From an uncultured virus (IMG/VR IMGVR_UViG_2850949226_000002) (taxonomy: Duplodnaviria > Heunggongvirae > Uroviricota > Caudoviricetes), in IMG/VR virus record IMGVR_UViG_2850949226_000002: 64,000 nucleotides of DNA; one strand, given 5' to 3'. The position numbers were made by a program, and so were the translations under genes. Of this stretch, positions 2,166 to 37,700 are shown in pieces. Within the stretch, counting starts at the first letter, position 1. Every line of letters starts with the position of its first letter. A model generated the notes under the pieces. It ran no database searches. It had not been told where the DNA came from and was given only the letters and a program-made list of their open reading frames with translations.

Positions 2166-2540
2166 ATGACAAACGAAAAGCGACCGATTGATTTCCACGA
2201 CCACAGGTTCGTCCGCGTTACGAAAGCGGTCCTCGAAGACGAGACGTATTTAGATAAGCCGATACAGAAACTCGTATATTCGATCTTGTGTTTTTACGCA
2301 GACAACACGAGTAAGAAATCGCATCCAAGCGTACAGACTATCGCAGACAAATGTCGATGCTCTTCGAATACAGTTCGGGCAGCATTGCGTCGACTAAAGG
2401 AACTCGAATTAATCGATATTACCGAGCGCAAAACAGAGAACGGGCAGACGTCGAATGAGTATACGTTGTGGGAGCCGGCGGAGTGGTTTTACTCCGGCAC
2501 TTCAAAAAACGATAGTAACCCCCTTCATGACTTGAAGTGA
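2166..2540 (+). CDS. Short replication-initiator-like wHTH (HTH_36-type) protein
   Basis: KLVYSILC...PSVQTIA..CRCSSNTVRAALRRL..L..I...NGQTSNEY pattern of phage initiator N-domains; RBS GGAGGT; iterons at its 3' end. Confidence 0.75.
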   Translation: MTNEKRPIDFHDHRFVRVTKAVLEDETYLDKPIQKLVYSILCFYADNTSKKSHPSVQTIADKCRCSSNTVRAALRRLKELELIDITERKTENGQTSNEYTLWEPAEWFYSGTSKNDSNPLHDLK

Positions 2541-2700
2541 CCTACTTCACAGTTTGAAGACGAACTAAACTCATTTAACTATACTTATTTATCTAAACTA
2601 ATAATAGCGCTCATATACATTCGCGCGGACATTCTTAAATAAAAGATATATCGCGATAAAGGAACATCTGCAAGAGAGAGCGTATGCGAACGAATTGCTA
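2500..2700 (+). other. Origin-like module A (iterons, three AT-rich 14-mers, shared TATCGCGATAAAG core)
   Basis: CTTCA-N5-TGAAG at 2523 and 2545 (half site at 2500); 14-mers at 2563, 2577, 2591; core at 2649-2661; GAGCGTATGCGA at 2678. Confidence 0.65.
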
Positions 2701-2734
2701 GGTCTTATTAATAAACGGAAGGGATTGCGAAAGT

Positions 2735-3082
2735 ATGAACGATAAGACGATTCTCAAAGGTATGATCGAAATTTATCAAAACGAATTTATGTGCGGGTAC
2801 GACGGACCTGATAAGGATGAGCTGCGTATTATCTTCTTAGAGCTAATCGTACACGCTACGCAATATATTAACGACTTTAGGTACTGTAGTAACCCGAAAT
2901 GCCCGTGCAGTCCGGAGTTTGGCATCGGAAAGCTAATGCGCAATCACGGACAGAAAATAAATTCTGTGCTATTCGGCGGTGCGTTCGGACTGAGTGAAGT
3001 TCCGATGCGACCTATTCGCGACTTTCTCAATCAATTTAATAACGAAGGAGATGACGAAGTTGACGGAAGCACAAACGGATGA
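2735..3082 (+). CDS. Hypothetical protein
   Basis: ORF with RBS in the early operon. Confidence 0.7.
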   Translation: MNDKTILKGMIEIYQNEFMCGYDGPDKDELRIIFLELIVHATQYINDFRYCSNPKCPCSPEFGIGKLMRNHGQKINSVLFGGAFGLSEVPMRPIRDFLNQFNNEGDDEVDGSTNG

Positions 3083-3248
3083 CCTGAAGTCGACGATCGA
3101 ATTTTTACTCGAGAATATGGAACTAGTCGCCCACCAAGTCGAACTAAACGCGGTCCTGATGCGGAAAGGAAAAGACGCACTTATACGCGCAGGATTCACC
3201 GAAGACCAAGCGCTCGAAATTATCAAAGCGAGAGGAGCGATGTTGTAA
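3060..3248 (+). CDS. Hypothetical protein
   Basis: RBS GAAGGAG then TTG; stop overlaps next start. Confidence 0.65.
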   Translation: MTEAQTDDLKSTIEFLLENMELVAHQVELNAVLMRKGKDALIRAGFTEDQALEIIKARGAML

Positions 3249-3571
3249 TGACGATTAACATCACGCTATCCCCCGATTACAAACTCACGTCAGACGAACG
3301 CAATATCATCGTCAATGAACGCTATTTCACCGATCCAACGAAAGCGCCGAACTGGCCGAAGCGGCTAGCCGAAAATCCCGATCTTGATCCGTCACCGATC
3401 GCACGTTGGCGGGAGATCGCGTACTTCTCATCCGTTGATCGCGCAATCATGTTCGTCATGGATCGGCGTGTAAAACTATCGGACGCCAAGACGCTGGAAG
3501 AACTCGCACGAATTATACGGGAATTTCGCGGGGAATTAGCGGCTTTGTTGACGGTCGAGGGTAATCGGTAG
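3248..3571 (+). CDS. Hypothetical phage protein
   Basis: Translationally coupled ORF. Confidence 0.75.
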   Translation: MTINITLSPDYKLTSDERNIIVNERYFTDPTKAPNWPKRLAENPDLDPSPIARWREIAYFSSVDRAIMFVMDRRVKLSDAKTLEELARIIREFRGELAALLTVEGNR

Positions 3572-3745
3572 GGTAGACGATAAAACGGTGGAGAGGCGGC
3601 GATATTGTGGCGGATGGTACGAGATGAATCTCGGAGCTCACCGACGTACAGCGTTTGAAATTAGCCGAGATTGCGGAGGAAAACACCAAACGAAGCGAGG
3701 AAGGTCTGACGGTTATCAAAAAAGACGATGAGTGGAGGCGTTAAA

Positions 3746-4081
3746 ATGATCGTTCCAAAATTCGATATAGACCACATTATCAAGGTCGCTAAGGAACTCG
3801 GCATTGAGGTGCGGGAGGTTGCTCCGGGAGAGGGCGGCGTTTTTATCAAGGAGGAAGACGGATCAGAGCGTGAGTTGACGACGTTCGATCTGTTTCCGGA
3901 AACTAAAGAAATCGCAGACCTACGTTGTGCCCTTGCCGGATTGATTGCGGAAAACGAGCGGCTGAAGAAGGCGCTGAAATTAATTGAATCGAAGTCGGAG
4001 CTTCCCGAAGAACCAGTCGATTTAATACCGATTACTGAGCTATACGAAATAAATTTGCACGCAAAGGAGGCGTTAAAATGA
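3746..4081 (+). CDS. Hypothetical protein
   Basis: RBS GGAGGCG; contains a 59-bp repeat shared with the next gene. Confidence 0.75.
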   Translation: MIVPKFDIDHIIKVAKELGIEVREVAPGEGGVFIKEEDGSERELTTFDLFPETKEIADLRCALAGLIAENERLKKALKLIESKSELPEEPVDLIPITELYEINLHAKEALK

Positions 4082-4145
4082 CGGACGAAATCGCAAGCCT
4101 ACGCTGTGCCCTTGCCGGATTGATTGCGGAAAACGAGCGGCTGAA
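3908..4145 (+). repeat. 59-bp direct repeat (3908-3966 and 4087-4145) encoding EIA(D/S)LRCALAGLIAENERLK
   Basis: 56/59 nt identical by direct comparison. Confidence 0.9.
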
Positions 4146-4323
4146 ACGCACGATCGAAGAAGCGGAAGAACTAACGGCCGACCTCTACGTCAGGTCAGAG
4201 TGGCAGCCGTCAGAGCCGGGCGTGATCTCGATGAAACTTCCGGAGAATCTTTCGGCTGATCAGCGGCATATCGTCACCGCATTGCACGGACTACTAATGC
4301 ACGAATTAAAGGAGGGCGAATGA
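4078..4323 (+). CDS. Hypothetical protein
   Basis: RBS AAGGAGG; coupled to neighbours. Confidence 0.75.
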   Translation: MTDEIASLRCALAGLIAENERLKRTIEEAEELTADLYVRSEWQPSEPGVISMKLPENLSADQRHIVTALHGLLMHELKEGE

Positions 4324-4496
4324 TGAACGTTACAATCAGCCTTTTAGACGACGAAATCGAGAAGATTCTCCGAGACCACTTTGCGCAAAAAGGATTTCAC
4401 GTAAAGGGGTCGCAGATACAATCGGACGGAAGCGGCCTTATCCGATTCGATATACAACTGTATGCGTACGATATTCTCGCGAAGGAGGACGAATAG
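4320..4496 (+). CDS. Small hypothetical protein (58 aa, not in ORF track)
   Basis: MMNVTISLLDDEIEKIL...; RBS AAGGAGG; fills the operon gap. Confidence 0.7.
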   Translation: MMNVTISLLDDEIEKILRDHFAQKGFHVKGSQIQSDGSGLIRFDIQLYAYDILAKEDE

Positions 4497-4823
4497 TTGA
4501 GCGAAATTAAAAGGCCGGTAATTACGAAGGAGCAGGCGGATTCGATAGCGGCGTTTTTAGAGGTGGGGACAAAAGAAGAACTGCTGACTGCTAAAGTACA
4601 CTGTTGTCATTTCGGAGATGAATATTCCGGAATTAATACTATCGATATCATGACGCTCGCAGCCGCATTAATCAACGGGTACGAAGTCGAAAAGACACCG
4701 GAGGAGAAGGTGCGGGAGTACTACGAATCTCACGGAGGTTCACCTAGCGCAGAGGAACGGAAAGCGGCCATTCGCGAAACGTTATACAAACTAGGAATCA
4801 AAATCGAAGGGGTGAATTCGTGA
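4497..4823 (+). CDS. Hypothetical phage protein (DUF1642-like)
   Basis: LAAALINGYEVEK motif common in Bacillus phage proteins. Confidence 0.7.
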   Translation: MSEIKRPVITKEQADSIAAFLEVGTKEELLTAKVHCCHFGDEYSGINTIDIMTLAAALINGYEVEKTPEEKVREYYESHGGSPSAEERKAAIRETLYKLGIKIEGVNS

Positions 4824-5191
4824 TGACGAAAGACGACCTTGAAGCGATCAGACAGCGTGCTGAAGCGGCAACGGAGGGCTACTGGGGCGCAGATGATAGT
4901 GAGTGGCCGGGAAATGGAAATCTTCGGTATTGGATAAACACTCATTGGGACGGCGTTGCGGCGGCAGTAACGAAAGAAGACGCAGAGTTCATCGCAAACG
5001 CCCGCCAAGACATCCCGGCTCTGCTCGATCACATTGCGGAGATCGACCGAGAATTACGTAAAGCAGAGTTAATTATCGGTAGGGTCGAGGACTTGTTGAG
5101 CAGCATACAACATGGTACCGGTTACGAAGTATACGATGAAGTTTATCGCTTTATTTACGAAGAAGGTGACGAAGATGACGACGACAGATAA
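4820..5191 (+). CDS. Ead/Ea22-like protein
   Basis: RAEAATEG.W...DAEFIANARQDIPALL motif. Confidence 0.65.
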   Translation: MMTKDDLEAIRQRAEAATEGYWGADDSEWPGNGNLRYWINTHWDGVAAAVTKEDAEFIANARQDIPALLDHIAEIDRELRKAELIIGRVEDLLSSIQHGTGYEVYDEVYRFIYEEGDEDDDDR

Positions 5192-5558
5192 ACCGGTATC
5201 CAAGTGGAATGTGCGCGACTTCCAGGCGTACTTAAAAGCGGAGCATGAGCGGCTGTACGGCGTCCCTTACGTTCCGATGCCTACTCGCGAACCATGGAAG
5301 GCGGAAGCGGGAATGCTCGGGCGCTGGGTCGGAACGAAGCGGAAGCCGGGCGAATACGGGCCGGAAGCAACGAAGCGATTCATCGATCTGTGCTTTGCGG
5401 AATACAGGCCGACGGCAGAATGGCCGGGCATCAGCTTCGGATTTATGCAGACGTATATGGGACGGAATTTGCAGCGGGCAGTGGCGGAAATCAAGGCCGA
5501 AGCAGCAGCGCAACAAAGGCGGAAGCAGCAGGCGGAAATCGGCGACGACTTTTATTAA
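5175..5558 (+). CDS. Hypothetical protein, possible helicase-loader partner
   Basis: RBS GAAGGTG; position upstream of the loader gene; function is inference. Confidence 0.65.
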   Translation: MTTTDKPVSKWNVRDFQAYLKAEHERLYGVPYVPMPTREPWKAEAGMLGRWVGTKRKPGEYGPEATKRFIDLCFAEYRPTAEWPGISFGFMQTYMGRNLQRAVAEIKAEAAAQQRRKQQAEIGDDFY

Positions 5559-5574
5559 ACGGAGGGGTTATGAT

Positions 5575-6169
5575 ATGGAAAACGTTGAACAACGATATGA
5601 CATTGCGGTAGAAACAGCGCGAGATGCGATCGAGGAATTGCGGCTAGCTGCATACGCAAAAGGATACGAAGATGCGAGGCGTGAATTAATGGCGCAGGCA
5701 CCGGCTGAAAAGACCGCACAAGAACGCCGGGATGAAATCGTCGAGCAGGCGAAGGCGGATGTATCGGGTTTACTCAAAAGAGACATCGGACATGATCACG
5801 AATTCATCGTAAACACCGAAAAAAGAACCGTCGTGGTTTTGAGAAAGCTGAGAGGATGTACGAACATAGTCCGCAGGAGGAATCGCCAAGGCCGCACCGG
5901 ACGATTGCTTCAACGAACATATCGGAGAAGCCATCGCTCTCCATCGCGCACTTGGACTCGAAGTGCCTGACGAATATCTTAACGCACCGCAGCCGACTGA
6001 GGTTCGTGTGGGGGATGTTGTCGCTTACCGCGGATTCTATAAAACAATTGATTATGTGACTGTAGTTGCCGATGGTGAACCGACAGGGGGCGGAAGAGCT
6101 GCGCTTACATCTATTGCTGTCAAACACGGAAAAATCATCGACGACAGCCGGACGGGGGTGGGCGAATGA
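5575..6169 (+). pseudogene. Frameshifted conserved Bacillus phage protein
   Basis: MENVEQ...KRTVVVL frame shifts near 5872-5880 into GIAKAAPDDCFNEHIGEAIALHRALGLEVPDEYLNAPQP. Confidence 0.75.
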
Positions 6170-6312
6170 CATACGATCCAGCAAGAGTAACGACTGATCT
6201 CGATTTCGTCGAAGGTATGCTACACGTCGTAAAAGGGGATGAGTACACCGTATATCTCCTCGTAGACAAACACAACGGAAATATCCACGTAGTAAACGTA
6301 ATCGAGAACTAA
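6166..6312 (+). CDS. Small hypothetical protein (48 aa, not in ORF track)
   Basis: MTYDPARVTTDLDF...; ATGA overlap with upstream stop. Confidence 0.55.
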   Translation: MTYDPARVTTDLDFVEGMLHVVKGDEYTVYLLVDKHNGNIHVVNVIEN

Positions 6313-6330: not shown

Positions 6331-7125
6331 TTGACTAACGAAAGAAACTGCGTCCTGGCTACCGGATGCAAAGCGGCCGGCACGTCCGCCTGTAACCGCC
6401 GATGCCCGCACTTCATCGCACTACACGGCGCGACAGGAAACGGCGGGCGGTCAGCGGCGGCAGGCTTACCGCGAGAATATCGACTGACAACGCTCGCCAA
6501 TTCGCCAGCCAGAGCGGATCAGCCAGCGATATATAAATCGGTTGAAAACTACGTCAAGACGTTCGAGCGTCAGTTTGAGCAGACGGAAGGCTACATCGAA
6601 CCGGCTGACCGTATCAAGTCGTTGTATCTCTTCAGCGCGAACTCTGGCACCGGAAAGACGACGACAGCGGCGGCAATCCTTAACGAATGGCTGCGCGTCC
6701 ATTACAGCGGATCTTTGCGGAGAGGTTTAACGCCGTCACTGCGTCCGGCCTATTTCCTCGATGTGAACGAATGGCAGACGGAATTCAACCTCGCAACCAT
6801 GACGAACGACGAGGACGGCCTGACGGAATTCAAACGGAAGATGACGCTGGCGATGACGGCTCCCTTTGCAGTACTGGATGACGTAGGGGTGCGGGATTGT
6901 ACGCCGGCATTTCGCGGCTATCTTCACGCAATAGTTAACGCAAGAGTGACGAATCAGTTACCGACTGTCTACACGAGCAACATTGCGATCGAACGGCTGC
7001 CGGACGTTTTCGGAGAGCAACGTCTGACGGACCGTATTCGTGACCTATGCCGCGTAATTGAATTCGAGGGCGAATCGAAAAGGGGGCTGCGGAGATGGAA
7101 ACGGACATCGCTTTCGGTGACCTAG
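6331..7125 (+). CDS. DnaC/DnaI-like helicase loader ATPase
   Basis: Cys/His N-terminus, GTGKTT Walker A, VLDDVG Walker B, YTSN, DRIR. Confidence 0.85.
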   Translation: MTNERNCVLATGCKAAGTSACNRRCPHFIALHGATGNGGRSAAAGLPREYRLTTLANSPARADQPAIYKSVENYVKTFERQFEQTEGYIEPADRIKSLYLFSANSGTGKTTTAAAILNEWLRVHYSGSLRRGLTPSLRPAYFLDVNEWQTEFNLATMTNDEDGLTEFKRKMTLAMTAPFAVLDDVGVRDCTPAFRGYLHAIVNARVTNQLPTVYTSNIAIERLPDVFGEQRLTDRIRDLCRVIEFEGESKRGLRRWKRTSLSVT

Positions 7126-7595: not shown

Positions 7596-7798
7596 TGTAC
7601 CGCCTACTCTATCCGTTAAAGTGGACGTTTGCTGCGCTAGATTGGGCGTTTTATTACATCGGTGTCGCTGCGGATTCCGTTTCGGATATGTTTGGGAATG
7701 CGGCTGACTTCTTCCGTATTCGAATAGAAATCGCAGAGCAGGCGAAAAGAGGCGTCCGAGTGATTTACGTTAAGAGAGTGAGGAGGGATCGCGGATGA
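7592..7798 (+). CDS. Hypothetical protein
   Basis: Coupled ORF with RBS GGGAGGT. Confidence 0.6.
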   Translation: MMYRLLYPLKWTFAALDWAFYYIGVAADSVSDMFGNAADFFRIRIEIAEQAKRGVRVIYVKRVRRDRG

Positions 7799-9144
7799 AC
7801 TACGGTGTTTTAATGCTATCGAAAGTAATCGAGCAGAACGATCCGAACGCGCTGCTGCGCTTTAATATTACCGCCGAGGACTTACCAACGGAAGGCGAAC
7901 GCAAAGCACTCCGATACATCACGGAATATGCGGAGAAACACGGAGGCCAGGCGCCGACGGCCGAGATGGTAACGCACGAGGTGCCGGATTTCGAGCCGAA
8001 TTTTGGTATCGAAGCTAGTTACGAGTTTATCGCGAAGAAATTGAAGAATTACGCGTCTTTGCGGGACTTTTCCGAAATTGTTAACGGTAGAGGAGACGGA
8101 GAAGAATCCGAATTTATAAAGCGGTGGGAGAGCGCGCAAGACAATCCGGAAGAATTTTTTTCTTGGTTGACGGAGCAAGCCGAAAGATTTAAAATTAGAA
8201 CAAACGTTCGTAGTTCGGTTGGTACCGACATCAAAAAGGATACCGACAAATTCAAAGCCGAATACGAAAACCGCAAGGCTGGCGAGTCTTTCCGGATCTG
8301 GCTCAGTAAATTCGACTTCATAAACCGGGCGATGGGCGGCTATGTTTCATCGAACGTATACGTTATTTACGGGAAGTCCGGCCGGGGAAAATCGGCCATT
8401 GCGTTGGAGGAAGCGATTAATTGCGCGATGCAGGGGGCGAACGTTCTGATTTGGTCGATGGAGATGGGATGGTATGAGGTTCTCGTCAGGCTTTACGTTT
8501 CCATTTCGGCAAGCATTGGCGTGACAAAAGCGAATCTTGATGGCGTCGATATTGAGGCCGGATTTAATTCGCGGGATGTTCGCCAGGGAAAGCTATCCGA
8601 CGAATTCGAATCCGGCTTTATGGAGTTCCTCGATAAGATGAACGAATTGATTCCGGGTAATATTATTGTCCGCGCGGTAGACGACGAAGACTTCGGCTCC
8701 CGGAAACTGCGGGATTTAAAAGCGGATATCCTCGAAACGAAAGCCGATGTCGTGCTAATCGACCCTTTTTACTACCTCGATTACGAAAAGAACACGTCAA
8801 AGACTGCGGGCGGAGACGCGGCCGAGACTTCGAAAAAACTCCGTCGTCTGGCCGGACAAACAAAAACGACTGTCTTTGCGTTGACGCAAGCGGAAGAAGG
8901 CGAAGGGAAAGACGCTGATTCCGAATTAAAGTTGCCGCAGCGTAAAGACGTCAAGAAAACAAAGGCTCTTCTCGAAGATGCTGCGCTATTGATTGCGGTG
9001 GATACGAACGCAGAGGAAGGTCGGGGCCTGATCGGTCTGAACAAAGGCCGGGATGGCGGCGAAGGTCAGCGCGCAGAGATCGTTTATTTGCCGCAGTTTG
9101 GCGTCATTAAGCAGCTAGGGGGAGCGGATCAGTTCGATTTCTAA
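7795..9144 (+). CDS. DnaB-like replicative helicase
   Basis: GKSGRGKS Walker A, SMEM, LIDP, ALTQ and KGRDG motifs. Confidence 0.9.
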   Translation: MNYGVLMLSKVIEQNDPNALLRFNITAEDLPTEGERKALRYITEYAEKHGGQAPTAEMVTHEVPDFEPNFGIEASYEFIAKKLKNYASLRDFSEIVNGRGDGEESEFIKRWESAQDNPEEFFSWLTEQAERFKIRTNVRSSVGTDIKKDTDKFKAEYENRKAGESFRIWLSKFDFINRAMGGYVSSNVYVIYGKSGRGKSAIALEEAINCAMQGANVLIWSMEMGWYEVLVRLYVSISASIGVTKANLDGVDIEAGFNSRDVRQGKLSDEFESGFMEFLDKMNELIPGNIIVRAVDDEDFGSRKLRDLKADILETKADVVLIDPFYYLDYEKNTSKTAGGDAAETSKKLRRLAGQTKTTVFALTQAEEGEGKDADSELKLPQRKDVKKTKALLEDAALLIAVDTNAEEGRGLIGLNKGRDGGEGQRAEIVYLPQFGVIKQLGGADQFDF

Positions 9145-9165: not shown

Positions 9166-10185
9166 GTGCCGACATTGACGTTAAACGGCCGTCCGGTCGA
9201 CGTCGACATACGATATGAGCTCGAACAGTTCGAATGGACGCGGCCGACCTGGACGGATGAGCGGCTCCTGGCCGCAAGTCCTTTCCGATATGACCGGACG
9301 CCGAGTTTTTACGTATATCTTGACGATACGACATCCGCAAAGGCCGGCTATTGGGGCGATAGCGGCTATTATGACGCAGAGTATGCACGGGGTGGCTTCG
9401 TTAAGCTGCTAGCGTTCTTGCGCGAAGAAACCGAAGAGGAGACGGTCGAATACCTCATCGATGCGTATGCGCCGGATTCAGATAACGGTAAATTAACGCT
9501 AAGGCTGCCGAAGCTGAAGATCGCAAAGAATCGCGAACCTCTAAGCGAATCGATTCTCGACGACGTGGTTGCGGGGCCTAACGATTATTTAAACAAGCGC
9601 GGAATCATGCCGGCGGTCCAGCGTCTAATGGGCGTCGGAATGGCAGGCGGTGCGGTTGCGTTGCCCTGGCGGCTCCCGAACGGCCGGCTCGCTAACGTAA
9701 AGTATCGGTCAACGCGGGGCAAAGCGTTCTGGTACGTAAAAGGCGGCTGGCCGATCCGGGATCTCGTTTACGGAATGAACGTCGTGTATGATCGGCGGCT
9801 GAGGCGCGTTGTCTTATGCGAGGCGGAGATCGATGCGCAGTCGTGGATGACAGCGGGCGTGCCGGCGATCGGAACCGGAGGATCTTCGTTCAACCAACGG
9901 AAGGCGGACATTATCGTCCAGTCTCCGATCGATCACGTAACCATCGTGACGGATAACGATAAGGCCGGCGAGAAGTTGCGGTCGGAGGTCGAGCGTTATT
10001 TATACGGGAAAGTCGGACTGGCACACGGATATATTACGGAAGGAAAGGATGCGAATGAATTATTGCTTGCGAAGGGGAGAGCGGAGTTGAAGGCGGTGTA
10101 TGAGCGTGCGGATGACGTTAAGAAGTGGCGGGTGAGTTTACAGTACGGGAATACCCGTACTAAAGGTCGGCGGAGGTTATATTAA
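9166..10185 (+). CDS. DNA primase (TOPRIM)
   Basis: CEAEIDA, DNDKAG and KDANE TOPRIM motifs. Confidence 0.9.
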   Translation: MPTLTLNGRPVDVDIRYELEQFEWTRPTWTDERLLAASPFRYDRTPSFYVYLDDTTSAKAGYWGDSGYYDAEYARGGFVKLLAFLREETEEETVEYLIDAYAPDSDNGKLTLRLPKLKIAKNREPLSESILDDVVAGPNDYLNKRGIMPAVQRLMGVGMAGGAVALPWRLPNGRLANVKYRSTRGKAFWYVKGGWPIRDLVYGMNVVYDRRLRRVVLCEAEIDAQSWMTAGVPAIGTGGSSFNQRKADIIVQSPIDHVTIVTDNDKAGEKLRSEVERYLYGKVGLAHGYITEGKDANELLLAKGRAELKAVYERADDVKKWRVSLQYGNTRTKGRRRLY

Positions 10186-10788: not shown

Positions 10789-11967
10789 TTGGGCGCACTT
10801 CAGCAAGATGTTTTAAACTGTTTCGACGATTTGTTTTTGGATTTTGATTCAGCTGCAAGTAAATTAAATATTCATGTGAATCAGCTTTACAATTTCAAAA
10901 GAACTGGGAAAATCGGATTTCGAACATTATTAAAATTGTCACAATTTTTCTATAAAGCGAAGTATCATGAATTAATGCAAGAATGGTGTTTGAAACTAAC
11001 TACAACTGAGGCTATTAAACATGCTTTTGAGTATGCGGCAATAAAGCGTGATATTCCTTTGTTAGAAAAATTGCTGAAAGCGCATAGAATGGATTCCAAC
11101 CTAATCAATTATACACAATTTTATCAGGTAATATATAACTACATGTTAGGGGAATTCAGACCACAAGAGTTGAGGAATTATGTGAACACTTTAAAATGCG
11201 GAAAGGATAAAGAATTAAAGGTTTTGAAAGATATCTTTTCTTGCTACTGTCTTTATTTTGAAAATAAATATGCAACAATCGTTGAAAAAGCTTCCGATAT
11301 CGAAAAAGAGATATACGAATTAAGTGACGCAAGGAAAACGTTTTTTAAAGAGTGTTATCTTATCAGACTCTCCGAAGTATTTGCGCCTGCTTATTTATAT
11401 CTTAAAGATCTTTCAAAAGCGCGACGTCATGCAGAATTTCTTTTTTCTTCGAATTTAAGTGCGAAAACGAAATCTGACGGGTATTATTACATGGGTGTTT
11501 CTTTTATAGAGGAAGATAAGAAAGAGTGTCTTCGCTATATAAGGATGAGCGCTGATGAGGCAAAAAAGACAAACGATTTGAGGATTGCTGCGGAAGCAAA
11601 AAACACATTGAAGTTAGTCGAGGGATTTTATTCGTATAAAGAGAAAGGGGAGATTCCTCAAAATTTACCAACACCGAAAGACATGATACTAGGCGAAAAA
11701 AATCTATTTCTGCGGTACTTCCAATTGATCAAGGATGGGACCTTATCAGATCTGGCCTGCGCGTATAGTACATTCACACAAGAATTCAACTTCCTGTTTT
11801 CAAGCATCGTTGTGGGTGATATGATCGATGCCGGATTAGACCCTCTCGTCGCTGCCCCTATAAAGGACATCCAATTAAATTACAAGGGAGAGGAATACTT
11901 TGAAAAAGATTTTATTGGCAGTTTTATTTACAGCGGTGGTTCTGCTAGTGGGAAGTTCGTTAATTAA
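10789..11967 (+). CDS. aimR: Arbitrium receptor AimR (RRNPP family, HTH plus TPR)
   Basis: ~390 aa, N-terminal HTH, IKHAFEYAA motif, helical TPR-like body; overlaps a secreted pro-peptide gene. Confidence 0.85.
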   Translation: MGALQQDVLNCFDDLFLDFDSAASKLNIHVNQLYNFKRTGKIGFRTLLKLSQFFYKAKYHELMQEWCLKLTTTEAIKHAFEYAAIKRDIPLLEKLLKAHRMDSNLINYTQFYQVIYNYMLGEFRPQELRNYVNTLKCGKDKELKVLKDIFSCYCLYFENKYATIVEKASDIEKEIYELSDARKTFFKECYLIRLSEVFAPAYLYLKDLSKARRHAEFLFSSNLSAKTKSDGYYYMGVSFIEEDKKECLRYIRMSADEAKKTNDLRIAAEAKNTLKLVEGFYSYKEKGEIPQNLPTPKDMILGEKNLFLRYFQLIKDGTLSDLACAYSTFTQEFNFLFSSIVVGDMIDAGLDPLVAAPIKDIQLNYKGEEYFEKDFIGSFIYSGGSASGKFVN

Positions 11968-12112: not shown

Positions 12113-12185
12113 AGAGAAGAATTATCCAAATTACATGTTATTATTTCTTTACAGAAGAAAAACTTAGAAAAAAATTAAGAAATTA

Positions 12186-12215
12186 TGTGCGGCTTTAAAA
12201 TGTCGCGGGTATTAT
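12186..12215 (+). promoter_or_regulatory. 30-bp conserved site, copy 2
   Basis: 28/30 identical to 1171-1200. Confidence 0.75.
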
Positions 12216-12242
12216 TAAGTGAAAAAAGGAGGGTGAAAGTTT

Positions 12243-12857
12243 TTGAAAGAAAAACTGAATAGCCTGGTATTGAATTATCAAAAGACAAGAAGTAATAATT
12301 CCTTCACAGAGATTTATGACCTAACCATCACTCCGATGCGATCGACATTTGAAGAGGTGGCGCGATCGTTGAGGGCTAGCGTTCCGGAGGTGTTAGCATT
12401 ATACGAGGATGTCCTTATGAATTGTGTTGCTTCTTATTCCGGTGAACATGACTTCGAAAACTATTTTAAGTTCAGTCTAAAAAATAAACGAGCGAATCTT
12501 TATAGGAATAAAAAGAAAAGGCATCAGAATGAAGTGTTAGAGTGTGGGTTATCTTCGAATGGCGATGAAGGCGCGGCAACGCTGAGAGTCGTCGCAGAAG
12601 ATACACCAGAGAATTTATTTTTCAGAAAAAAAAGAGCCGATCAGCGGCAACTGATCGACAATTTGGTTGAAAAATCGGACGAAACAACAAAAGTAATTGT
12701 TGAGACGTTCCTAGCGTGTGAACGCCCAACGCCGACGGCAATCGGTAAGAAGTTAGGCGTCCATCACATGACAGTCATTCGCAAACTCGAAAAGCTGGCA
12801 GGCTACTTCGATACTCAACAGTTCGGTGATTACCGAGACTATTTGTTTGCGAAATAA
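12243..12857 (+). CDS. Sigma-factor-like transcriptional regulator
   Basis: Region-2-like FENYFKFSLKNKRANLYR and C-terminal HTH TAIGKKLGVHHMTVIRKL. Confidence 0.7.
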   Translation: MKEKLNSLVLNYQKTRSNNSFTEIYDLTITPMRSTFEEVARSLRASVPEVLALYEDVLMNCVASYSGEHDFENYFKFSLKNKRANLYRNKKKRHQNEVLECGLSSNGDEGAATLRVVAEDTPENLFFRKKRADQRQLIDNLVEKSDETTKVIVETFLACERPTPTAIGKKLGVHHMTVIRKLEKLAGYFDTQQFGDYRDYLFAK

Positions 12858-29347: not shown

Positions 29348-30622
29348 ATGGGGAAAGCCGATCGCAAAAGGTGGGAAGGTAACGTTAAATCAATGGAAAT
29401 CATCGCAAAGGAACGCGACCAAATAACTGAAGAAGATCTCGAATTCTTACGACAAAACTATACGTCTGCTGGCGGACTGTTACCGAACGCATTCTCAGGC
29501 GGTGCATTCTTCACGCCAACCCACGTCGCTAAATTCATATGGGACGTACTAAAGCCTCGCTTACCTGAGAATCCGAAAGTCCTCGAACCTTCCGTCGGTG
29601 CCGGTGTCTTTCTCGAACACGCTCCGGACGGTGCGGACCTGACTGCGTTAGAACTCGATAAAACAAGCGCAAAGGTAACGTCGCTGCTTTATCCAGACGC
29701 TGAAATTGTCGAAGGGAATGCGCTTCTTCATGATCGACGGGACTATTACGACTTAGTTGTCGGAAATCCTCCGTATGGCGTCACTGTTAAATTCGAGCCG
29801 AAAGAGGGAGAAGAGTGGCGGTCAGTTACGAAAAAGAAGGGCGAATACGGCGGAAAGTCAGAGGTTGCGTTTATTGAACTTGCAATCAAGGCGGCAAAGC
29901 CTGGCGGATATATTGCGTTTGTCCTTCCGTTAGGACTATCTTACGGTAACTACGCGGCCAAGCTGCGGAAGTTAATGCACGAAACATGCTGGCAAGTTGC
30001 GACGATTATGCTGCCGAGTGAGACGTTCCAGCATGTAGGGACAACGGTTCCAACGCAGATTTTGATTTTACGGAAGGCACCACCCGGTACGCAATTAATA
30101 TCACCAGCGACTACGAAATGGGAATCGAATTTTAGAAGAGGCGGAGACAAAGACATAACAGAATACAACGCAAAGTTTCTCGAAGGCCAGCAGCCAGCCT
30201 ATTTCGCTCAAGTAACGGATATCGGTTGGGACGCGAAAGGTAAATTGACGGATAAATGGAGCGATGGCCTAACGCAACTTGACGATCTTCTTAACGATTT
30301 TACTGACGACAACCTAATGCGCGAAAATCTATATCCGCACCTTCCAAGCTGGCACGGAATCGAGAAAGGTAACGACGCGTTTTTCTTCTCTCATGGTAAC
30401 GGCATCTGCGACGGCCACAGAGACGCGGAAAGAACGTTCTCAGACGGGCCTTACCGATGGAACGAATTAACGCTAGGGGCAGGCGATGAGATCGAATGGA
30501 ATGGTCGTATGGTGAGTTCGTTTGATTTTGATTGGCAGGACGAAATTGTCCGCAACTATTTCGATAGACTGCGCGATTCCTACGGTGAACCACATAATTC
30601 AGCGAAATTGGAGGCGGTTTAA
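29348..30622 (+). CDS. Solitary N6-adenine DNA methyltransferase
   Basis: GAFFTP, VLEPSVGAG (SAM-binding) and GNPPY (catalytic) motifs. Confidence 0.88.
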   Translation: MGKADRKRWEGNVKSMEIIAKERDQITEEDLEFLRQNYTSAGGLLPNAFSGGAFFTPTHVAKFIWDVLKPRLPENPKVLEPSVGAGVFLEHAPDGADLTALELDKTSAKVTSLLYPDAEIVEGNALLHDRRDYYDLVVGNPPYGVTVKFEPKEGEEWRSVTKKKGEYGGKSEVAFIELAIKAAKPGGYIAFVLPLGLSYGNYAAKLRKLMHETCWQVATIMLPSETFQHVGTTVPTQILILRKAPPGTQLISPATTKWESNFRRGGDKDITEYNAKFLEGQQPAYFAQVTDIGWDAKGKLTDKWSDGLTQLDDLLNDFTDDNLMRENLYPHLPSWHGIEKGNDAFFFSHGNGICDGHRDAERTFSDGPYRWNELTLGAGDEIEWNGRMVSSFDFDWQDEIVRNYFDRLRDSYGEPHNSAKLEAV

Positions 30623-31011
30623 TGGGTACTGTCAAAATCGATCTACACCGAAAGGATCGCGAATTTGAAACGACATATGCGCTAGACAATGCGGAGGGCG
30701 TCAAAACGTTGCTCTCCGATTATCCGAAGTTCGTCAGCCGCAAACGACTCGGAGAATACGAAGCTGCCGAAGTGCTGCTCGATCTGCACAACGCGATTGA
30801 GCTTGCGGATCTGACCGACAGACAACGCGAAGCTATCCGGCTCGTATATTTCGAAGACCTGACGCAAGTCGAGGCGGGAAAACGGATGGGGGTCGGCAAG
30901 GATTCCGTTAATCATCTGATAAATCGAGCGGCTGATTCGATTGCGGATATTTACTACTATTGGGCGGGACATGGCGAAGGATACTCGACGGGAGGACGAA
31001 TTAATGGATAA
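30622..31011 (+). CDS. Sigma-70 region-4 HTH regulator, possible late activator
   Basis: LTDRQREAIRLVYFEDLTQVEAGKRMGV. Confidence 0.8.
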   Translation: MGTVKIDLHRKDREFETTYALDNAEGVKTLLSDYPKFVSRKRLGEYEAAEVLLDLHNAIELADLTDRQREAIRLVYFEDLTQVEAGKRMGVGKDSVNHLINRAADSIADIYYYWAGHGEGYSTGGRING

Positions 31012-31499: not shown

Positions 31500-31533
31500 A
31501 CTTTTACCCGTTTAGCTGTCTATACGTTATGAG
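31500..31533 (+). promoter_or_regulatory. 34-bp promoter-like motif, copy 1 (ACTTTTAC...TGTCTATACGTTATGAG)
   Basis: 30/34 identical to 35351-35384. Confidence 0.75.
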
Positions 31534-31580
31534 GGCGCCAAATCCGCGCTCTTTTATTTTGCGACAAAGGGGACGATATT

Positions 31581-32381
31581 TTGAAAAGATTACGAGTAGT
31601 AAATGCAGAGACGGGCGAAGATCTATCGACAGACTACACGCTCAGACACCGGAACCAGGACGAAGCTTTCCGGGAACAGCAAAAGCAGACGACGGACAGG
31701 CGCGACTTTTCCAACGCCAATATGTCTTATATTCACGAAGTCTATGACGCCCTCACAACGGCACAATGCGGGTATTTGATGTTGCTGCAATGCTACGTCG
31801 ACTATAACGGTGTTCTCGTGAAATCTAGCCGCGATAAAACTCCGATGACGACAGCGGATATGATGTCCGTTCTCCAGCTCGCGAAGAAGCCGCGAACGTT
31901 CTACGATTTCCTGAGCGCCTGTACTGCGCATGATATTATCCGGGAGGAAGGCGGCATATACTCGGTGAACGAACGCTATCATTTCAAAGGTAACTTCGGT
32001 AGCCAGTACGTCGTCAAACTCTATACCGCGAAGATTAAGAAGGTGTACAGCGAAGTGAAAGCGACAGACATCGGCCTGATCTACCGAATGCTGCCGTTCG
32101 TCCACTACGAAACAAACGCTCTTTGCGAGAATCCTTTCGAAAAGAATCCGAAGTATATTCGTTGGTTCAATAAAAAAGAGCTTGCGGCAGCGATCGGAGT
32201 AACGCCGGATACGCTTGGCCGGCGCCTGAAGCAGATGAAATTCGACGGTGAATTCGTTGTTGCGCGAATAAAGGTCGGTGGCGAGCCGGAACGTTACACG
32301 TTCAATCCTAACGTGTTTTATCGACAGTCCAAGGCGCCGGATAAGACGCTGCTTGCGATGTTTAACGTTAAGAAACCGTAA
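31581..32381 (+). CDS. RepL-like replication initiator (tandem wHTH)
   Basis: VVNAETGE, YSVNERYHFKG and YTFNPNVFYR motifs resemble Firmicute plasmid RepL proteins. Confidence 0.6.
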   Translation: MKRLRVVNAETGEDLSTDYTLRHRNQDEAFREQQKQTTDRRDFSNANMSYIHEVYDALTTAQCGYLMLLQCYVDYNGVLVKSSRDKTPMTTADMMSVLQLAKKPRTFYDFLSACTAHDIIREEGGIYSVNERYHFKGNFGSQYVVKLYTAKIKKVYSEVKATDIGLIYRMLPFVHYETNALCENPFEKNPKYIRWFNKKELAAAIGVTPDTLGRRLKQMKFDGEFVVARIKVGGEPERYTFNPNVFYRQSKAPDKTLLAMFNVKKP

Positions 32382-34164: not shown

Positions 34165-34214
34165 GTACAACACCTCAACTCTAATGTAAAATTGTTTTAG
34201 GAAAGGATGAGTCT

Positions 34215-34559
34215 ATGAGAAAATACATAATTATCCTAATCTCCATCGTAATTATAACATTTGGAGGTATTTACATGAAGCACCAACACGATCAAAAAGT
34301 AGCAGAAACCGAGTTGTTTAATCAGGCTAAAACTAAGATGAAAACTTTTTTAGAAAAAAACTATAAAGATATTAAAGAAATAAATTTTTCGGATTCATAT
34401 GACATAGACCCTATGGGCGGGATAACTGTAGAAGGATATATAAATGGGGATAAAAATAAAGAGTTTTTCGGTACTTATGATAAAACTAACGATGAGATAG
34501 GTATTTCTTCAGTGGACGCAGAAGAGAAGCCAGAGTGTCAAGATAAAGTTTGTAAATAA
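34215..34559 (+). CDS. Membrane-anchored DUF1433/DUF1310-like protein, candidate immunity
   Basis: N-terminal TM helix and PMGGITVEGYINGD motif. Confidence 0.6.
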   Translation: MRKYIIILISIVIITFGGIYMKHQHDQKVAETELFNQAKTKMKTFLEKNYKDIKEINFSDSYDIDPMGGITVEGYINGDKNKEFFGTYDKTNDEIGISSVDAEEKPECQDKVCK

Positions 34560-34560
34560 A

Positions 34561-34596
34561 GAGCCCGACTCAATTTTGAGTAGGGCTTTTCGTTTT
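34561..34596 (+). terminator. Intrinsic terminator
   Basis: agccc-g-actca...tgagt-a-gggct followed by T-tract. Confidence 0.75.
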
Positions 34597-34695
34597 ATAT
34601 GCTCTTTTTCATTCCACAACGGCGGCACTCGCGAAGAAATATGCCGTCCTTAACCGAACTTTTAAACAGCGTATAATCGCAGGAGGTGCCGGCAA

Positions 34696-34914
34696 ATGAT
34701 CGTTAAATTAAAGATAGCCGAGCTACTTGATCGGAAGAATATGACGCAGAAGGAACTCGCTGACTTAACCGGAATCCGTCCGACTGCCATTAGCGAACTG
34801 TGCCGCGGAATTAAGGAACGGGTGCAGCTCGACCATCTCAGCCGGATTGCGACCGCGTTGAATATATCGGATATACGGGAGCTTATCGACCTGACCGAGG
34901 ACGCTGACGAATGA
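34696..34914 (+). CDS. XRE/HTH_26 regulator
   Basis: MTQKELADLTGIRPTAISELC; RBS AGGAGGT. Confidence 0.88.
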   Translation: MIVKLKIAELLDRKNMTQKELADLTGIRPTAISELCRGIKERVQLDHLSRIATALNISDIRELIDLTEDADE

Positions 34915-35044
34915 TTGGCGTCTATTTTTTCGTGTTGATACCGTATATTTATACGTTAGTATGAATAATAATACGTTGAATGTAACGGTGAGACATCGGA
35001 TGATTATCGTCTTATTCTCAATTAGAATAACGTAATTGATAATG

Positions 35045-35312
35045 AACACGACTTTATTCGCACAAATCGGCCAAAAACACGACTTTATTCGCACAACCGA
35101 AAATAGGGTTCGTGCTTACGGCCGCAAGGGATACAGCGATTTTGAGTGCGGAATTACTTCTTAGTCTTCTGAATTCGAAGACTAGCGGGAACTACGTTTC
35201 ACTACGTCCCGCAGAAACGCAATCATGTATATTGTATAAATAATTGTATCGCGATAAAGGTCTTAATAATATCCGCGGACACGTAGGAGCGTAAGCGACG
35301 GAGTGGGCGCTA
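35045..35312 (+). other. Origin-like module C (two 21-bp iterons, hairpins, TATCGCGATAAAG core)
   Basis: AACACGACTTTATTCGCACAA exact at 35045 and 35076; core at 35247-35259; GAGCGTAAGCGA at 35287. Confidence 0.65.
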
Positions 35313-35350
35313 TGTTTTAAAACATTCGAAAATATTCCGTTAATATATCA

Positions 35351-35384
35351 ACTTTTACACGCGTAGTTGTCTATACGTTATGAG
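35351..35384 (+). promoter_or_regulatory. 34-bp promoter-like motif, copy 2 (candidate late promoter)
   Basis: 30/34 identical to 31500-31533; heads the packaging/structural operon. Confidence 0.75.
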
Positions 35385-35872
35385 AAGGACGCTACAACTA
35401 CGGAGCAACAACGGGCACTAGCCGCACACTTGGCGTCCTTTTAGTACATATTGCGGCGAAGTCATTAACGAGCACAAAGCGGAATGCGCAAATCACACGG
35501 AATTAGACGTTTTAGCCTTCTCCGAGGGTATTCGGTAGGGTGACGGTTAGAAGCGCTAATTTCGTGTAATTTTATTCGTACCGGGCGCGTACCTCCTTAC
35601 ACGGGTCATTGAAAACCGCGCGAAATAAGAGGAAAGCGTTCGGAGCGCTTAATACTCTGATAAGGCGTGTAACCTGACAAGAGCAACAAAAAAAGGCCTC
35701 GCGGAAGGATTATAACCGGTCTTGCCTTCCGAAAAACCACGTCGCCCAGTCTTGAGGCGGCGGGTGTTAATAACGCAATCAGAACGAGGGCGATCCGAAT
35801 ATGGGTCGCTCTTTTTGTGCTTGCGATAAATAAGCCGGAACGCCTCTCAACGATGCGGACCAAGCCCGGTAT
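35385..35872 (+). ncRNA. Candidate large structured leader RNA or structured ssDNA element
   Basis: No credible ORF; many nested stems; internal terminator-like hairpin at about 35786-35817. Confidence 0.45.
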
Positions 35873-35899
35873 TTAAAAACGAAAAAGGAGACGATGTGA

Positions 35900-36178
35900 A
35901 TGGCGGAATCAAAGCGCGAATCAATCGGCAAAATTAAAATCGACTTGGATGTATCCGACGCGATAACCGGACTCAAGGCGGTTCAACGCGAAGCAAAGGC
36001 GGCGACTAAGGCGCTGGCCGAATTTCAGGACCTAGCTGAACGGCTCGGTGAGAAACCGTTAGCTGACGGTTGGGAGACGACCCGATCATTGCGGTCTATA
36101 TTCGATAGGTTAGACGAAGAGCCTACCGTTTATCTGGTCGGAAAGGAAATTCGAAGGAGGAGCGCTGATGAGCGGTAA
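35900..36178 (+). CDS. Hypothetical protein
   Basis: RBS AAAGGAG. Confidence 0.75.
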   Translation: MAESKRESIGKIKIDLDVSDAITGLKAVQREAKAATKALAEFQDLAERLGEKPLADGWETTRSLRSIFDRLDEEPTVYLVGKEIRRRSADER

Positions 36179-36542
36179 AATAACCGTTAAACTTACCGCC
36201 AGCGACGAATATGACGAACAGCTCGATGAATTGCGCCAAGCCTTTTTCGCTCTGTCCGACGGCCCTGAACAAGAAGAGTGGCGACTCGCTCTCGTTGTAG
36301 GAAGGACCGTTAGCGAAGCCAAAACGATATGGAAACGGGTGAAAACGAACTATCCGAGCTATAAGTACACGCAATTTGTATCGCGTAATCCTTACGTACT
36401 GGACGGCATAAATCCGGAAAACATATCGCTATTTATGCTACCGGGCTACGCGGATAATCCGATTGTAAACGATCCAATGTTTCGATGGATTATCGATAAT
36501 GCAGCCGAAGTTATTTACGTTGAGGAGGGGGCGGATGAGTAA
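36168..36542 (+). CDS. Hypothetical protein
   Basis: RBS AAGGAGG; coupled. Confidence 0.75.
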   Translation: MSGKITVKLTASDEYDEQLDELRQAFFALSDGPEQEEWRLALVVGRTVSEAKTIWKRVKTNYPSYKYTQFVSRNPYVLDGINPENISLFMLPGYADNPIVNDPMFRWIIDNAAEVIYVEEGADE

Positions 36543-37083
36543 CGTTGTAGCGCTGAACAACAGAGACCAACCAGACCGCAAGCCAATGCCGAATGACAAA
36601 GCCGCGCTCTTAGACAATCCGCAAGGGTTCGAGGTATACAGTCGGGAGCTTATGCGCAAGGTATTTCCGCGTTTGATTAACGAAGCTTATGATGTAGTCT
36701 ATGCGGACTACAAACGAAAGCCTGAGATACGCGATGTGGTGGCGTTTTACTTTCTGTTGCAGTCGTATATCGACGGTAACTATACGCGCAGTGACGGAAG
36801 CCTTAACGATAGGTTCGGCGCTTGCTTCTTAAACTACGAAACTATTCAGCAGCACCTTCGCGTCGATCGTAACCGGATTAATCTGCTGGCCGCGATCTTA
36901 GAGACTAACGGGATCATACGGACGACCGGACATTACGAAGGGACAAAGCGTTTCAAGTGGTACTTTCCGTCGTTCTGTCCGCACATAACTGACGATGGAT
37001 ATATCGTTAATGAGTTCGGCGAAACGGTGCGACCGGACTTTAGCGTGTACTTGCCGAAGCGTCGCAGAAAGGAGCGTAATTAG
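36535..37083 (+). CDS. Initiator-like wHTH protein
   Basis: AFYFLL...GACFLNYETIQQHLRVDRNRI..L...LETNGII resembles initiator wHTH domains; iterons downstream. Confidence 0.5.
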   Translation: MSNVVALNNRDQPDRKPMPNDKAALLDNPQGFEVYSRELMRKVFPRLINEAYDVVYADYKRKPEIRDVVAFYFLLQSYIDGNYTRSDGSLNDRFGACFLNYETIQQHLRVDRNRINLLAAILETNGIIRTTGHYEGTKRFKWYFPSFCPHITDDGYIVNEFGETVRPDFSVYLPKRRRKERN

Positions 37084-37473
37084 GTGGCGTTAAAATGGTC
37101 GTATAAAAGGAGAGAAGAGTTCGCTGATTTAAGCGCAAGGAAATGCGCTCACTGCGGAGTAGAAGGACTCGTTAGTAAGCGTGAAGCTAACGGTAACGAA
37201 AGCCTAACGTACAATATCGATCATATTATTCCGCAAGCGAGTGGTGGTACAGATGACATCGACAATCTCCAGCTACTCTGTCGTCCGTGTAACGCTGCTA
37301 AAAGCGCATTGAATACCGAGGAGTTCCCGAGCCATTACGATTGTAAGCACGAAGTGGAGCGCATGAAGATCGAGCTAGAAGAAACAACCGGTTTAGATAA
37401 CGAGTATATAGAACGCATGCTACGCACCTTCAGTATTAAGGATCGGTATCACGTTCTATCCAAGCTGTTATAA
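37084..37473 (+). CDS. HNH endonuclease
   Basis: CAHCG...IDHIIP...GG...DNLQLLCRPCN. Confidence 0.9.
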   Translation: MALKWSYKRREEFADLSARKCAHCGVEGLVSKREANGNESLTYNIDHIIPQASGGTDDIDNLQLLCRPCNAAKSALNTEEFPSHYDCKHEVERMKIELEETTGLDNEYIERMLRTFSIKDRYHVLSKLL

Positions 37474-37489
37474 ACGTTGCTATGACGCA

Positions 37490-37700
37490 TAGTATGCCTA
37501 GGACATACGATCGCTAGTATGCGCAAGACATACGATGGATCATCTGCACAGGGCGGACTGTAAAAAGAGAAAGAAGTAAAAGAGCAATACGTAAAAGAGA
37601 AACAAATAATAGCGATCTATTCGCTGCGCTCATACGATACGCAGATATTGGTAATCTATTAAATACATTATCGCGATAAAGAACTTATATAAAAGATAAA
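37490..37700 (+). other. Origin-like module B (two 22-bp iterons, three A-rich repeats, TATCGCGATAAAG core)
   Basis: TAGTATGC-N4-GACATACGAT at 37490 and 37515; GTAAAA(A)GAG three times in 37560-37600; core at 37669-37681. Confidence 0.65.

Follow-up and report, generated by a model that had tools for sequence, protein, structure and literature searches.

Gene blocks and a shared core

The DNA analysed here is a stretch of 64,000 bases (called the window below) that comprises bases 1-64000 of the 72,215-base provirus record IMGVR_UViG_2850949226_000002 of an uncultured virus, and our subject is a set of three cassettes in it. Each cassette follows the same plan, in which a DNA-binding gene, a private pair of repeats, and a shared core with the 13-mer TATCGCGATAAAG are combined. 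We label the sites by position, A at 2649, B at 35247, and C at 37669; a preliminary description made from the sequence alone had used the letters B and C the other way round. Its central statement, that three cassettes of parallel build exist, proved correct: the cassettes are real, conserved, and unexplained in the literature that was searched.

Judged by its gene content in Pfam and PHROGs, the window belongs to a temperate siphophage of the Bacillus type. Named relatives are the Bacillus phages phi18-2, 268TH007/002, and vB_BauS_KLEB27-1 (KLEB27-1), and the protein names that the sources give for homologs indicate hosts of the B. licheniformis group. The same two databases identified a tyrosine integrase (1-960), a DnaC-like loader (6331-7125), a DnaB-like helicase (7795-9144), a primase (9166-10185), and AimR (10789-11967), as well as a family-A polymerase and a ribonucleotide reductase, and the HNH, terS, terL, portal, protease, and capsid genes are found from 38.5 kb on. 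Almost all genes of the window read rightward. They form three rightward blocks: a replication/middle block from 2735, a pre-late block consisting of a leader and 35900-37083, and a late block of 23 kb for packaging, structure, and lysis from 37784. All three cores are co-oriented with the genes and sit in the only sizeable gaps free of open reading frames (ORFs) that head co-directional blocks. Sites B and C are 2.4 kb apart, directly ahead of the packaging genes.

The 13-mer occurs exactly at 2649, 35247, and 37669, in each case on the + strand, and these are the only three copies in the entire record, in which a reversed control pattern had no match. All of them (3/3) lie inside ORF-free gaps, so that the earlier observation of one 13-mer in three intergenic regions and in one orientation stands unchanged. 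With up to two mismatches, 12 matches were counted on both strands of the palindrome, compared to an expectation of 3.8 +/- 2.0, and none of 100 shuffles reached 12. The 13-mer represents the sole 11-mer family common to three intergenic gaps of the window, and its 8-bp core ATCGCGAT is present at seven places in the window, three of which are the cassette gaps.

The core, a perfect 10-bp palindrome, lies between inverted half-site-like elements, M0 (consensus CGC[AG]GA[TC]ATT) and inverted M0. Over about 80 nt, sites A and C are alike, with AATAATAGCG followed by M0, an AT-rich spacer, and the 13-mer, and an inverted M0 copy lies 3' of the 13-mer at A and B. The repeats named in the preliminary description were all found in their places and exceeded chance in shuffle controls, apart from AATAATAGCG (2600 and 37605), which is weak alone, as 4 of 100 shuffles also reached two copies. 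Two copies were never reached in 100 shuffles by GAGCGTAWGCGA, which lies downstream of the 13-mer at A and B (2678 and 35287), or by the inverted repeat CTTCA-N5-TGAAG (2523 and 2545; 0.09 expected). The Rfam covariance models had no match in the window at the gathering score and none in 34900-36000 at E values up to 1, and single-strand folding of each site, done for both strands, gave z values from -1.87 to +1.60 and no significant hairpin.

The cassettes and their winged-helix proteins

All three cassette proteins are winged-helix DNA binders, and this fold cannot separate an initiator from a transcription factor. They belong to three families without detectable kinship (BLASTP E value of 0.26 for the 124-aa against the 182-aa protein; hhalign probability of 1.4% for the unrelated families of the 266-aa and the 182-aa protein). 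All structural scores mentioned below are under the informative or caution level set by the respective tools themselves. The features of cassette A are as follows.

2166..2540, + strand: gene of the 124-aa winged-helix protein (HTH_36/DnaD_N), matching only the N-terminal domain of phage initiators (Pfam, PHROGs)
2523..2559, + strand: inverted repeat CTTCA-N5-TGAAG, two copies with period 22, the first over the stop codon of 2166-2540 (pattern search)
2563..2599, + strand: three AT-rich direct repeats (AACTAnAC), period 14, 81% AT, kept in relatives (composition)
2600..2633, + strand: left part of the core, AATAATAGCGCTCA and then TTCGCGCGGACATT (M0) (alignment, repeat search)
2649..2661, + strand: 13-mer (M1) with palindrome TATCGCGATA (exact match)
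2662..2734, + strand: inverted M0 (GAACATCTGC), GCAAGAG, GAGCGTATGCGA, and conserved sequence as far as the ribosome site; candidate for a transcribed leader (alignment)

Cassette A is the only one that lies directly 3' of its winged-helix gene, and that gene is located 3.6-6.5 kb ahead of the loader, helicase, and primase genes. Its 124-aa protein matched HTH_36 with 46 bits and DnaD_N with 30 bits (cut-off 27) in Pfam, both being above the cut-offs. The best match in PHROGs was phrog_270 (E value 7.6e-15, profile positions 34-129 of 383), and of the 16 PHROG matches, 13 have a replication-initiation, helicase-loading, or primosomal function in their annotation. By these profile matches, the label "initiator-like" seems fair for this protein. 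We also considered a split initiator, with the product of 3248-3571 ("replication initiation protein" in PHROGs) as its C-terminal domain, and rejected it, as no fused form was found; 76 of 78 representatives of 3248-3571 are stand-alone proteins of 45-234 aa, and the two long ones match via many short stretches.

Some further repeats surround cassette A. A 54-nt repeat (76% identity) is present at 1154-1207 and 12169-12222, just ahead of the genes 1220-2149 and 12243-12857, and its second copy directly follows aimR. The pair may represent two promoters under arbitrium (AimR) control, and one AimR-linked promoter may then drive an operon that ends in the winged-helix gene of cassette A. Between the integrase terminator and the 54-nt repeat, a unit of about 55 nt is found in three tandem copies (997-1158; 62-76% identity). 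A 59-nt repeat with 95% identity lies at 3908-3966 and 4087-4145 inside the adjacent small genes 3728-4081 and 4078-4323, which appear to be tandem paralogs.

Cassette B has the following features.

31581..32381, + strand: gene that closes the long middle block; its 266-aa product has two winged helices in tandem and is a candidate for binding the 21-mers (model, homologs)
34696..34914, + strand: XRE-type helix-turn-helix (HTH) gene, 72 aa, just ahead of the cassette and equipped with a sigma-A-like promoter (34650) and a terminator (34899-34923) of its own (Pfam, promoter/terminator scan)
35045..35096, + strand: exact 21-mer, two copies with period 31 (35045, 35076), identical in phi18-2 (repeat search)
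35162..35212, + strand: two short G+C-containing inverted repeats (sequence inspection)
35247..35259, + strand: 13-mer (M1) (exact match)
35267..35298, + strand: TAATATCCGCGGA (-10-like hexamer and inverted M0), then GAGCGTAAGCGA (sequence comparison)
35299..35899, + strand: ORF-free leader with TTTTAC-N17-CGTTATGAG (35353-35384) and terminator-like hairpins, of which 35786-35813 was scored by the terminator scan and the others were seen by eye (ORF list, terminator scan)

The gene 31581-32381 ends 2.9 kb upstream of site B with four genes between, and 2.7 kb from the 21-mers. Cassette B has a 32-nt stretch with 78% AT and no AT-rich triple repeat. The 266-aa protein shares 87%, 86%, and 25% identity with its counterparts in the relatives, the last being that of KLEB27-1. 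Its family is well conserved and comprises 207 proteins at an E value of 0.001 or better; among the 120 listed, which are 55-97% identical, PF05732 (RepL) was assigned to three and a "Replication protein" name to two. Distant homologs are found on small plasmids, and a 24%-identical one is encoded by the 16-kb PL16, on which no Rep was recognised. The structure model (predicted local distance difference test score, pLDDT, 77; predicted template modelling score, pTM, 0.70) consists of two tandem winged helices. Foldseek found no match for it at an E value of 0.001 or better and weak matches to RepE54 and a Rep-DUE complex (TMq 0.31-0.35), and the all-against-all aligner gave R6K Pi as the best match (Z 5.9, root mean square deviation 4.8, 173 residues). 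By this comparison of models, the protein is possibly initiator-like.

The leader of about 640 nt downstream of site B (35260-35900) is partly homologous (76%) to the ORF-free gap of 1.7 kb between yonN and yonK of SPbeta and phi3T (1660-3342 in the SPbeta piece compared), which lies just ahead of structural genes. Homology covers 35590-35729 and the hairpin 35786-35813 followed by GTGCTTGCG. In the SPbeta gap, Rfam detected a DUF3800-VIII RNA (47.5 bits) and a weak skipping-rope match, and in the window neither. From this homology, the leader is a candidate for a large leader RNA that unrelated Bacillus phages have in common. An exact 17-mer within the element TTTTAC-N17-CGTTATGAG occurs twice (31502-31560 and 35353-35445; 3 of 100 shuffles gave that), once before the gene of the 266-aa protein and once in the leader, and each copy of the element is followed directly by a hairpin and a T-run. 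The element is kept before the gene of the 266-aa protein and before terS in phi18-2 and 268TH007, and could be an attenuator, an antitermination site, or a promoter of the sigma-like factor.

The features of cassette C are the following.

36535..37083, + strand: gene of the 182-aa extended winged-helix protein (structure model/search)
37084..37473, + strand: HNH endonuclease gene between the cassette-C gene and its repeats (Pfam)
37490..37536, + strand: TAGTATGC-N4-GACATACGAT, two copies (37490, 37515) with period 25 (pattern search)
37560..37604, + strand: three purine-rich direct repeats (GTAAAAGAG), period 15-16, 71% AT (composition)
37605..37649, + strand: left part of the core, AATAATAGCGATC ... 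CGCAGATATT (M0) (repeat search)
37669..37681, + strand: 13-mer (M1), 103 nt ahead of the first gene of the late block (exact match)

The HNH gene is precisely absent from the 93%-identical relative G005, and the contigs from three of four runs of RNA libraries skipped it with a joint from 37064 to 37472, so that it looks like a mobile insertion of the homing type. With the model of the 182-aa protein (pLDDT 79), Foldseek ranked "Structure of initiator" and "Rep-DNA complex" highest, at a probability of 0.98 and an E value of 0.02; we take these entries to be staphylococcal RepA_N proteins. In a wider structural search, TFIIE/TFE, Fur, and the N-terminal domain of Geobacillus DnaB tied at Z 7.1-7.3. 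On these models, the protein is a generic extended winged helix.

Two points of the preliminary description need qualification. Direct adjacency to the winged-helix gene holds at A, not at C, where the HNH gene lies between, and not at B. Of the three proteins that it had called initiator-like, the 124-aa one keeps this label and the 266-aa one may deserve it, and for the 182-aa one it is unproven. Its triple AT-rich repeats are confirmed at A and C and are lacking at B. The private repeats consist of two copies per site, inverted at A and C and direct at B.

Conservation in related phages

Site-A sequences of relatives were gathered without use of the motif, three by BLAST and seven distinct ones via the downstream protein. 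The site-A block was kept in all ten, as was the invariant core ATCGCG[AT]T, and the exact 13-mer was present in two. Across these relatives, the core palindrome shows one double change from G-C to A-T. When the site-A gap was aligned over phi18-2, 268TH007, and KLEB27-1, the mean column identity was 72%. Conservation extends over about 150 nt via GCAAGAG..GAGCG..TTGCTA up to the ribosome site, even with a different next gene, and is above that of the neighbouring coding DNA. The upstream HTH_36 gene in these relatives has 82%, 49%, or no detectable relation to that of the window, and the next gene differs. The downstream protein had no relatives among species-representative genomes.

Copies of the 13-mer in relatives were distributed as follows.

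G005: three copies, on a single strand
NZ_CP126497.1 (65-kb circular record): three copies, on a single strand
G001: B and C only, with at most one mismatch
phi18-2 and 268TH007: A-type and B-type
KLEB27-1: A only
G002, G003, and G004: A, and a coincidental copy inside nrdF

In KLEB27-1, no further copy was found outside ORFs at up to two mismatches. The B-type site of phi18-2 and 268TH007 has the same 21-mers together with TATCGCGATCAAG and lies about 220-230 nt ahead of terS, in front of late genes unrelated to those of the window. A 14-mer scan of viral contigs returned 114 stretches, of which 27 were window-like (9 of site A, 11 of site B, and 7 with the coincidence in nrdF); the remaining stretches were chance matches. 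The element is universal at site A only.

Other genes were compared in the same relatives. The 272-aa HTH_36 protein, encoded by the first gene after the genetic switch (63510-64328), is 65-74% identical in all three named phages that carry the element. The 72-aa XRE protein has a close homolog in phi18-2 only. In phi18-2, an 11-mer variant of site A recurs between the divergent HTH genes of the switch, which was obtained in 45 of 20000 shuffles; the switch region of the window (63351-63509) holds no 13-mer-like site and has ACGTAAA repeats instead.

Some of the related records are of interest for the form in which the phage exists. NZ_CP126497.1 is described as a circular "plasmid" of B. paralicheniformis with 65,049 bp, and two compared proteins are 94-98% identical to those of the window. 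Records of 63-68 kb from B. cereus and Paenibacillus (NZ_CP133652.1; NZ_CP062261.1) hold homologs of the 266-aa protein. Such circular or 63-68-kb records may represent episomes or phage-plasmids, or the assembly may have captured excised phage. The 11.5-kb pBL027-2, which matches site A by 100%, was considered as a natural mini-replicon and rejected, as it is a linear fragment over the phage attachment junction. In the 11.5-kb linear record NZ_CP021679.1, the YolD-like gene is joined straight to the integrase, which represents the junction of the excised phage and sets the phage end at about 64.8 kb in the provirus record; past this point (64.7-72.2 kb), the Rap-like and LXG/Ntox50 genes are probably host or cargo DNA. 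In the phi18-2 record, 309 bases are identical at start and end (1-309 of the start piece and 4140-4448 of the end piece), about 70 nt after terS, which is either a direct terminal repeat or an assembly overlap. In the window, a G+C-rich stretch of C-runs and G-runs between the second HNH gene and terS (38839-38957) is likely the cos region.

Possible roles of the cassettes

The reading that we tentatively favour is that the cassettes are paralogous relay promoter/operator cassettes, which switch between stages of transcription and head three gene blocks. Each block would end in a winged-helix gene, and its product would bind the private repeats just downstream and turn on the next block. The shared core AATAATAGCG ... 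CGCAGATATT ... AT-rich ... ATCGCGAT would be read at all three sites by the same machinery, presumably RNA polymerase and one dimeric regulator on the palindrome. The repeats themselves, where they lie, how they are conserved, and the DNA-binding folds are shown here, whereas the binders, the transcript starts, and the order of the relay are inferred. The 272-aa HTH_36 protein is a candidate for the regulator on the palindrome. Transcription at cassette A could in addition help to open the DNA for replication, and both roles would be compatible.

Position favours transcription control. Site C lies 103 nt ahead of the first gene of the block with HNH, terS, terL, and portal. The winged-helix gene is the last one of the preceding block, at C once the mobile HNH gene is discounted, and at B once the leftward cargo genes and the self-contained XRE gene are discounted. 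A scan for sigma-A promoters (-35 and -10 elements 16-18 nt apart, at least 9 of 12 positions) found none in 2541-2734 (+), 35200-35300, and 37474-37783. The 23-kb late block needs a promoter, yet 37474-37783 has none of the sigma-A type, and the phage encodes a candidate factor for late transcription.

30622..31011, + strand: sigma-like protein, 129 aa, region 4 only (Sigma70_r4, 42.6 bits; phrog_3512 "sigma factor", E value 1.2e-39)

Relatives keep this protein with 70%, 65%, and 51% identity. By eye, the SigD, extracytoplasmic function (ECF) sigma, and SPO1 late consensus sequences did not appear to fit any of the sites. Also in favour of the relay-promoter reading are late and replication blocks without a sigma-A promoter, a terminator before B, hairpins in the leader of B, and the GAGCGTAWGCGA that A and B share. 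The palindrome between half-site-like elements and the 11-mer in the switch region of phi18-2 are operator-like and count on the same side. The conservation at site A up to the ribosome site would fit a transcribed leader, and a sequence-specific shared core would suit RNA polymerase or a regulator better than the loading of a helicase. The available RNA-library data consist of contigs, from which starts, ends, and strand cannot be read and in which uncovered stretches carry no meaning; contigs crossed site C unbroken in 4/4 runs, which is compatible with read-through and, being contigs, proves no transcript.

A number of observations speak against a relay of promoters. No transcript start was seen in the contig data, and contig breaks at 35281-35285 occurred in three runs from two studies; in two of these runs, a strain difference at 35284 accounts for them. 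From the 13-mer to the -10-like hexamer, the distance is 0 nt at A, 7 nt at B (11 nt in phi18-2), and 4-6 nt at C, the spacing between AATAATAGCG and M0 also varies, and no known promoter geometry fits. The private repeats are 100-200 nt upstream of the 13-mer, which is far for a simple activator. As the terminator scan found no terminator ahead of A or C, the next block could be expressed by read-through with no promoter of its own. KLEB27-1-like phages keep the element at site A only, beside replication genes. The winged-helix genes resemble initiators more than they resemble the usual late activators, and NCBIfam gave no RinA or ArpU match for any scanned protein. Furthermore, paired binding sites followed by three AT-rich 14-16-mers are the textbook layout of an origin.

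The strongest competitor, which we consider less likely, is that the cassettes are replication origins, at which each winged-helix protein would initiate at its own repeats and the AT-rich triples would melt. The shared core would then serve the loader, helicase, or primase as a common site, or would be bound by a single origin-binding protein, as oriL and oriR of SPP1 are; perhaps cassette A alone is an origin, with B and C being copies reused otherwise. The 124-aa protein indeed matches initiator N-domains and is encoded near the loader, helicase, and primase genes. Against origins, this protein is an N-domain only, with no fused or split partner found, and no GC-skew inflection was found at any site, GC and AT skew being monotonic and following gene direction. 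In favour of origins, the 266-aa protein has two winged helices as in iteron Rep proteins, with R6K Pi as its best match, the weak RepE54 and Rep-DUE matches, the few RepL assignments, and the homolog on PL16. The B repeats have a length of 21 bp, which is iteron size. Also the initiator and Rep-DNA titles of the 182-aa search are in line with origins, but its fold ties with TFIIE/TFE and Fur, and structural scores are below caution levels. At A and C, the paired repeats precede three AT-rich 14-16-mers, with 81% and 71% AT compared to 54% in the window, and the surrounding genes are less conserved than the non-coding block. On the other hand, B lacks the triple repeat, each cassette has only two private repeats, and B and C are close together directly ahead of packaging genes, with B-type sites before terS in relatives. 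A sequence-specific site for helicase loading would be unlike the loaders we know of. Origins retain their share of probability because no transcript start was seen, the spacing is variable, A and C have no terminator ahead of them, site A is universal, and the layout is that of a classical origin.

Two origins in one Bacillus phage are known: according to PMC6316719, SPP1 has oriL and oriR, both made of direct repeats along with an AT-rich stretch and both bound by gp38, and one of these origins is in a late intergenic region. SPP1 and our phage are thus both Bacillus phages in which similarly built cis-sites occur more than once, but one initiator serves both sites in SPP1, whereas here the repeats differ per site and only the downstream core is shared. 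With R6K Pi, F RepE, and lambda O/ori, the similarity consists of a winged-helix gene, repeats, and an AT-rich stretch, and at B of two winged helices and 21-bp repeats. The differences are that here only two repeats are present per cassette, inverted at A and C, that the structural match is weak, and that the gene of the 266-aa protein is 2.7 kb off.

A more elaborate version, which we regard as rather improbable, is that of modular origins or origin-promoter hybrids, with three initiator-like proteins that open their own sites via the private repeats and feed one core for replication or priming. If true, this would give stage-specific starts, with early theta replication from A and late replication from B and C beside the packaging genes. 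As origins, the sites would be the first case known to us in which several initiators share one start site. In T4 (oriF and oriG) and T7, a phage-specific promoter beside an AT-rich stretch can serve as an origin. Such promoter-origins would reconcile the two principal readings.

Less probable again, with only a slim chance, is a role of the palindrome as the operator of one common repressor, or as a silencer or roadblock, by which three lytic regions are closed in the lysogen, the rest of each cassette being unrelated local signals. A perfect palindrome is what dimeric HTH proteins typically bind, the switch region of phi18-2 holds an M1-like 11-mer, and just ahead of site B stands a small XRE gene that has a promoter and a terminator to itself, but the switch region of the window itself has ACGTAAA repeats and no such site, no small HTH protein is common to all phages that carry the element, and the likeness of A and C over about 80 nt is far beyond operator size. 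In a Bacillus prophage, an operator that recurs in promoter regions has a precedent in SPBRE, which PMC10516654 presents as a short element in several SPbeta promoter regions that is bound by the master regulator MrpR, with ten peaks. By that description the likeness is a short element repeated in a Bacillus prophage; the difference is that here three sites each have a private repeat pair and their own DNA-binding gene. Finally, it is highly improbable that the shared core acts as a conserved "linker" where modules meet, mainly a site of homologous recombination between mosaic phages without a function of its own in the life cycle, because a passive linker would not hold a perfect palindrome, a fixed orientation, parallel private repeat pairs beside DNA-binding genes, or conservation over about 150 nt at site A above the neighbouring coding DNA, even though mosaic joints coincide with the cassettes and the genes on either side of A and the late module vary while the block is kept.

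For the relay-promoter reading, a close known system is that of the activator-dependent late promoters of temperate phages of Gram-positive bacteria (RinA/ArpU/LtrC type; Alt of TP901-1). Shared traits are a small DNA-binding gene directly before HNH/terS/terL, the lack of a sigma-A -35 element, and upstream repeats, and the position agrees, as C is directly before the late block and the B-type site is before terS in phi18-2 and 268TH007. Our case differs in that other winged-helix families are involved, that one core occurs three times with three proteins, and that it is also found before replication genes. A literature search on the Xpf late promoters of PBSX gave nothing usable. A search for the phage names yielded a genome announcement and passing mentions, and no study of transcription or replication in this phage family. 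The element is unexplained in the literature searched, and multiple origins in one Bacillus phage are already described for SPP1.

The cassettes concern a family of temperate Bacillus phages of about 65 kb, which includes phi18-2, 268TH007, KLEB27-1, prophages of the B. licheniformis group, and the 65-kb circular "plasmid". Whichever reading applies, the element offers precise and cheap targets for functional study. A reusable core with exchangeable pairs of protein and site would show how mosaic phages retime gene blocks by swaps of small cassettes.

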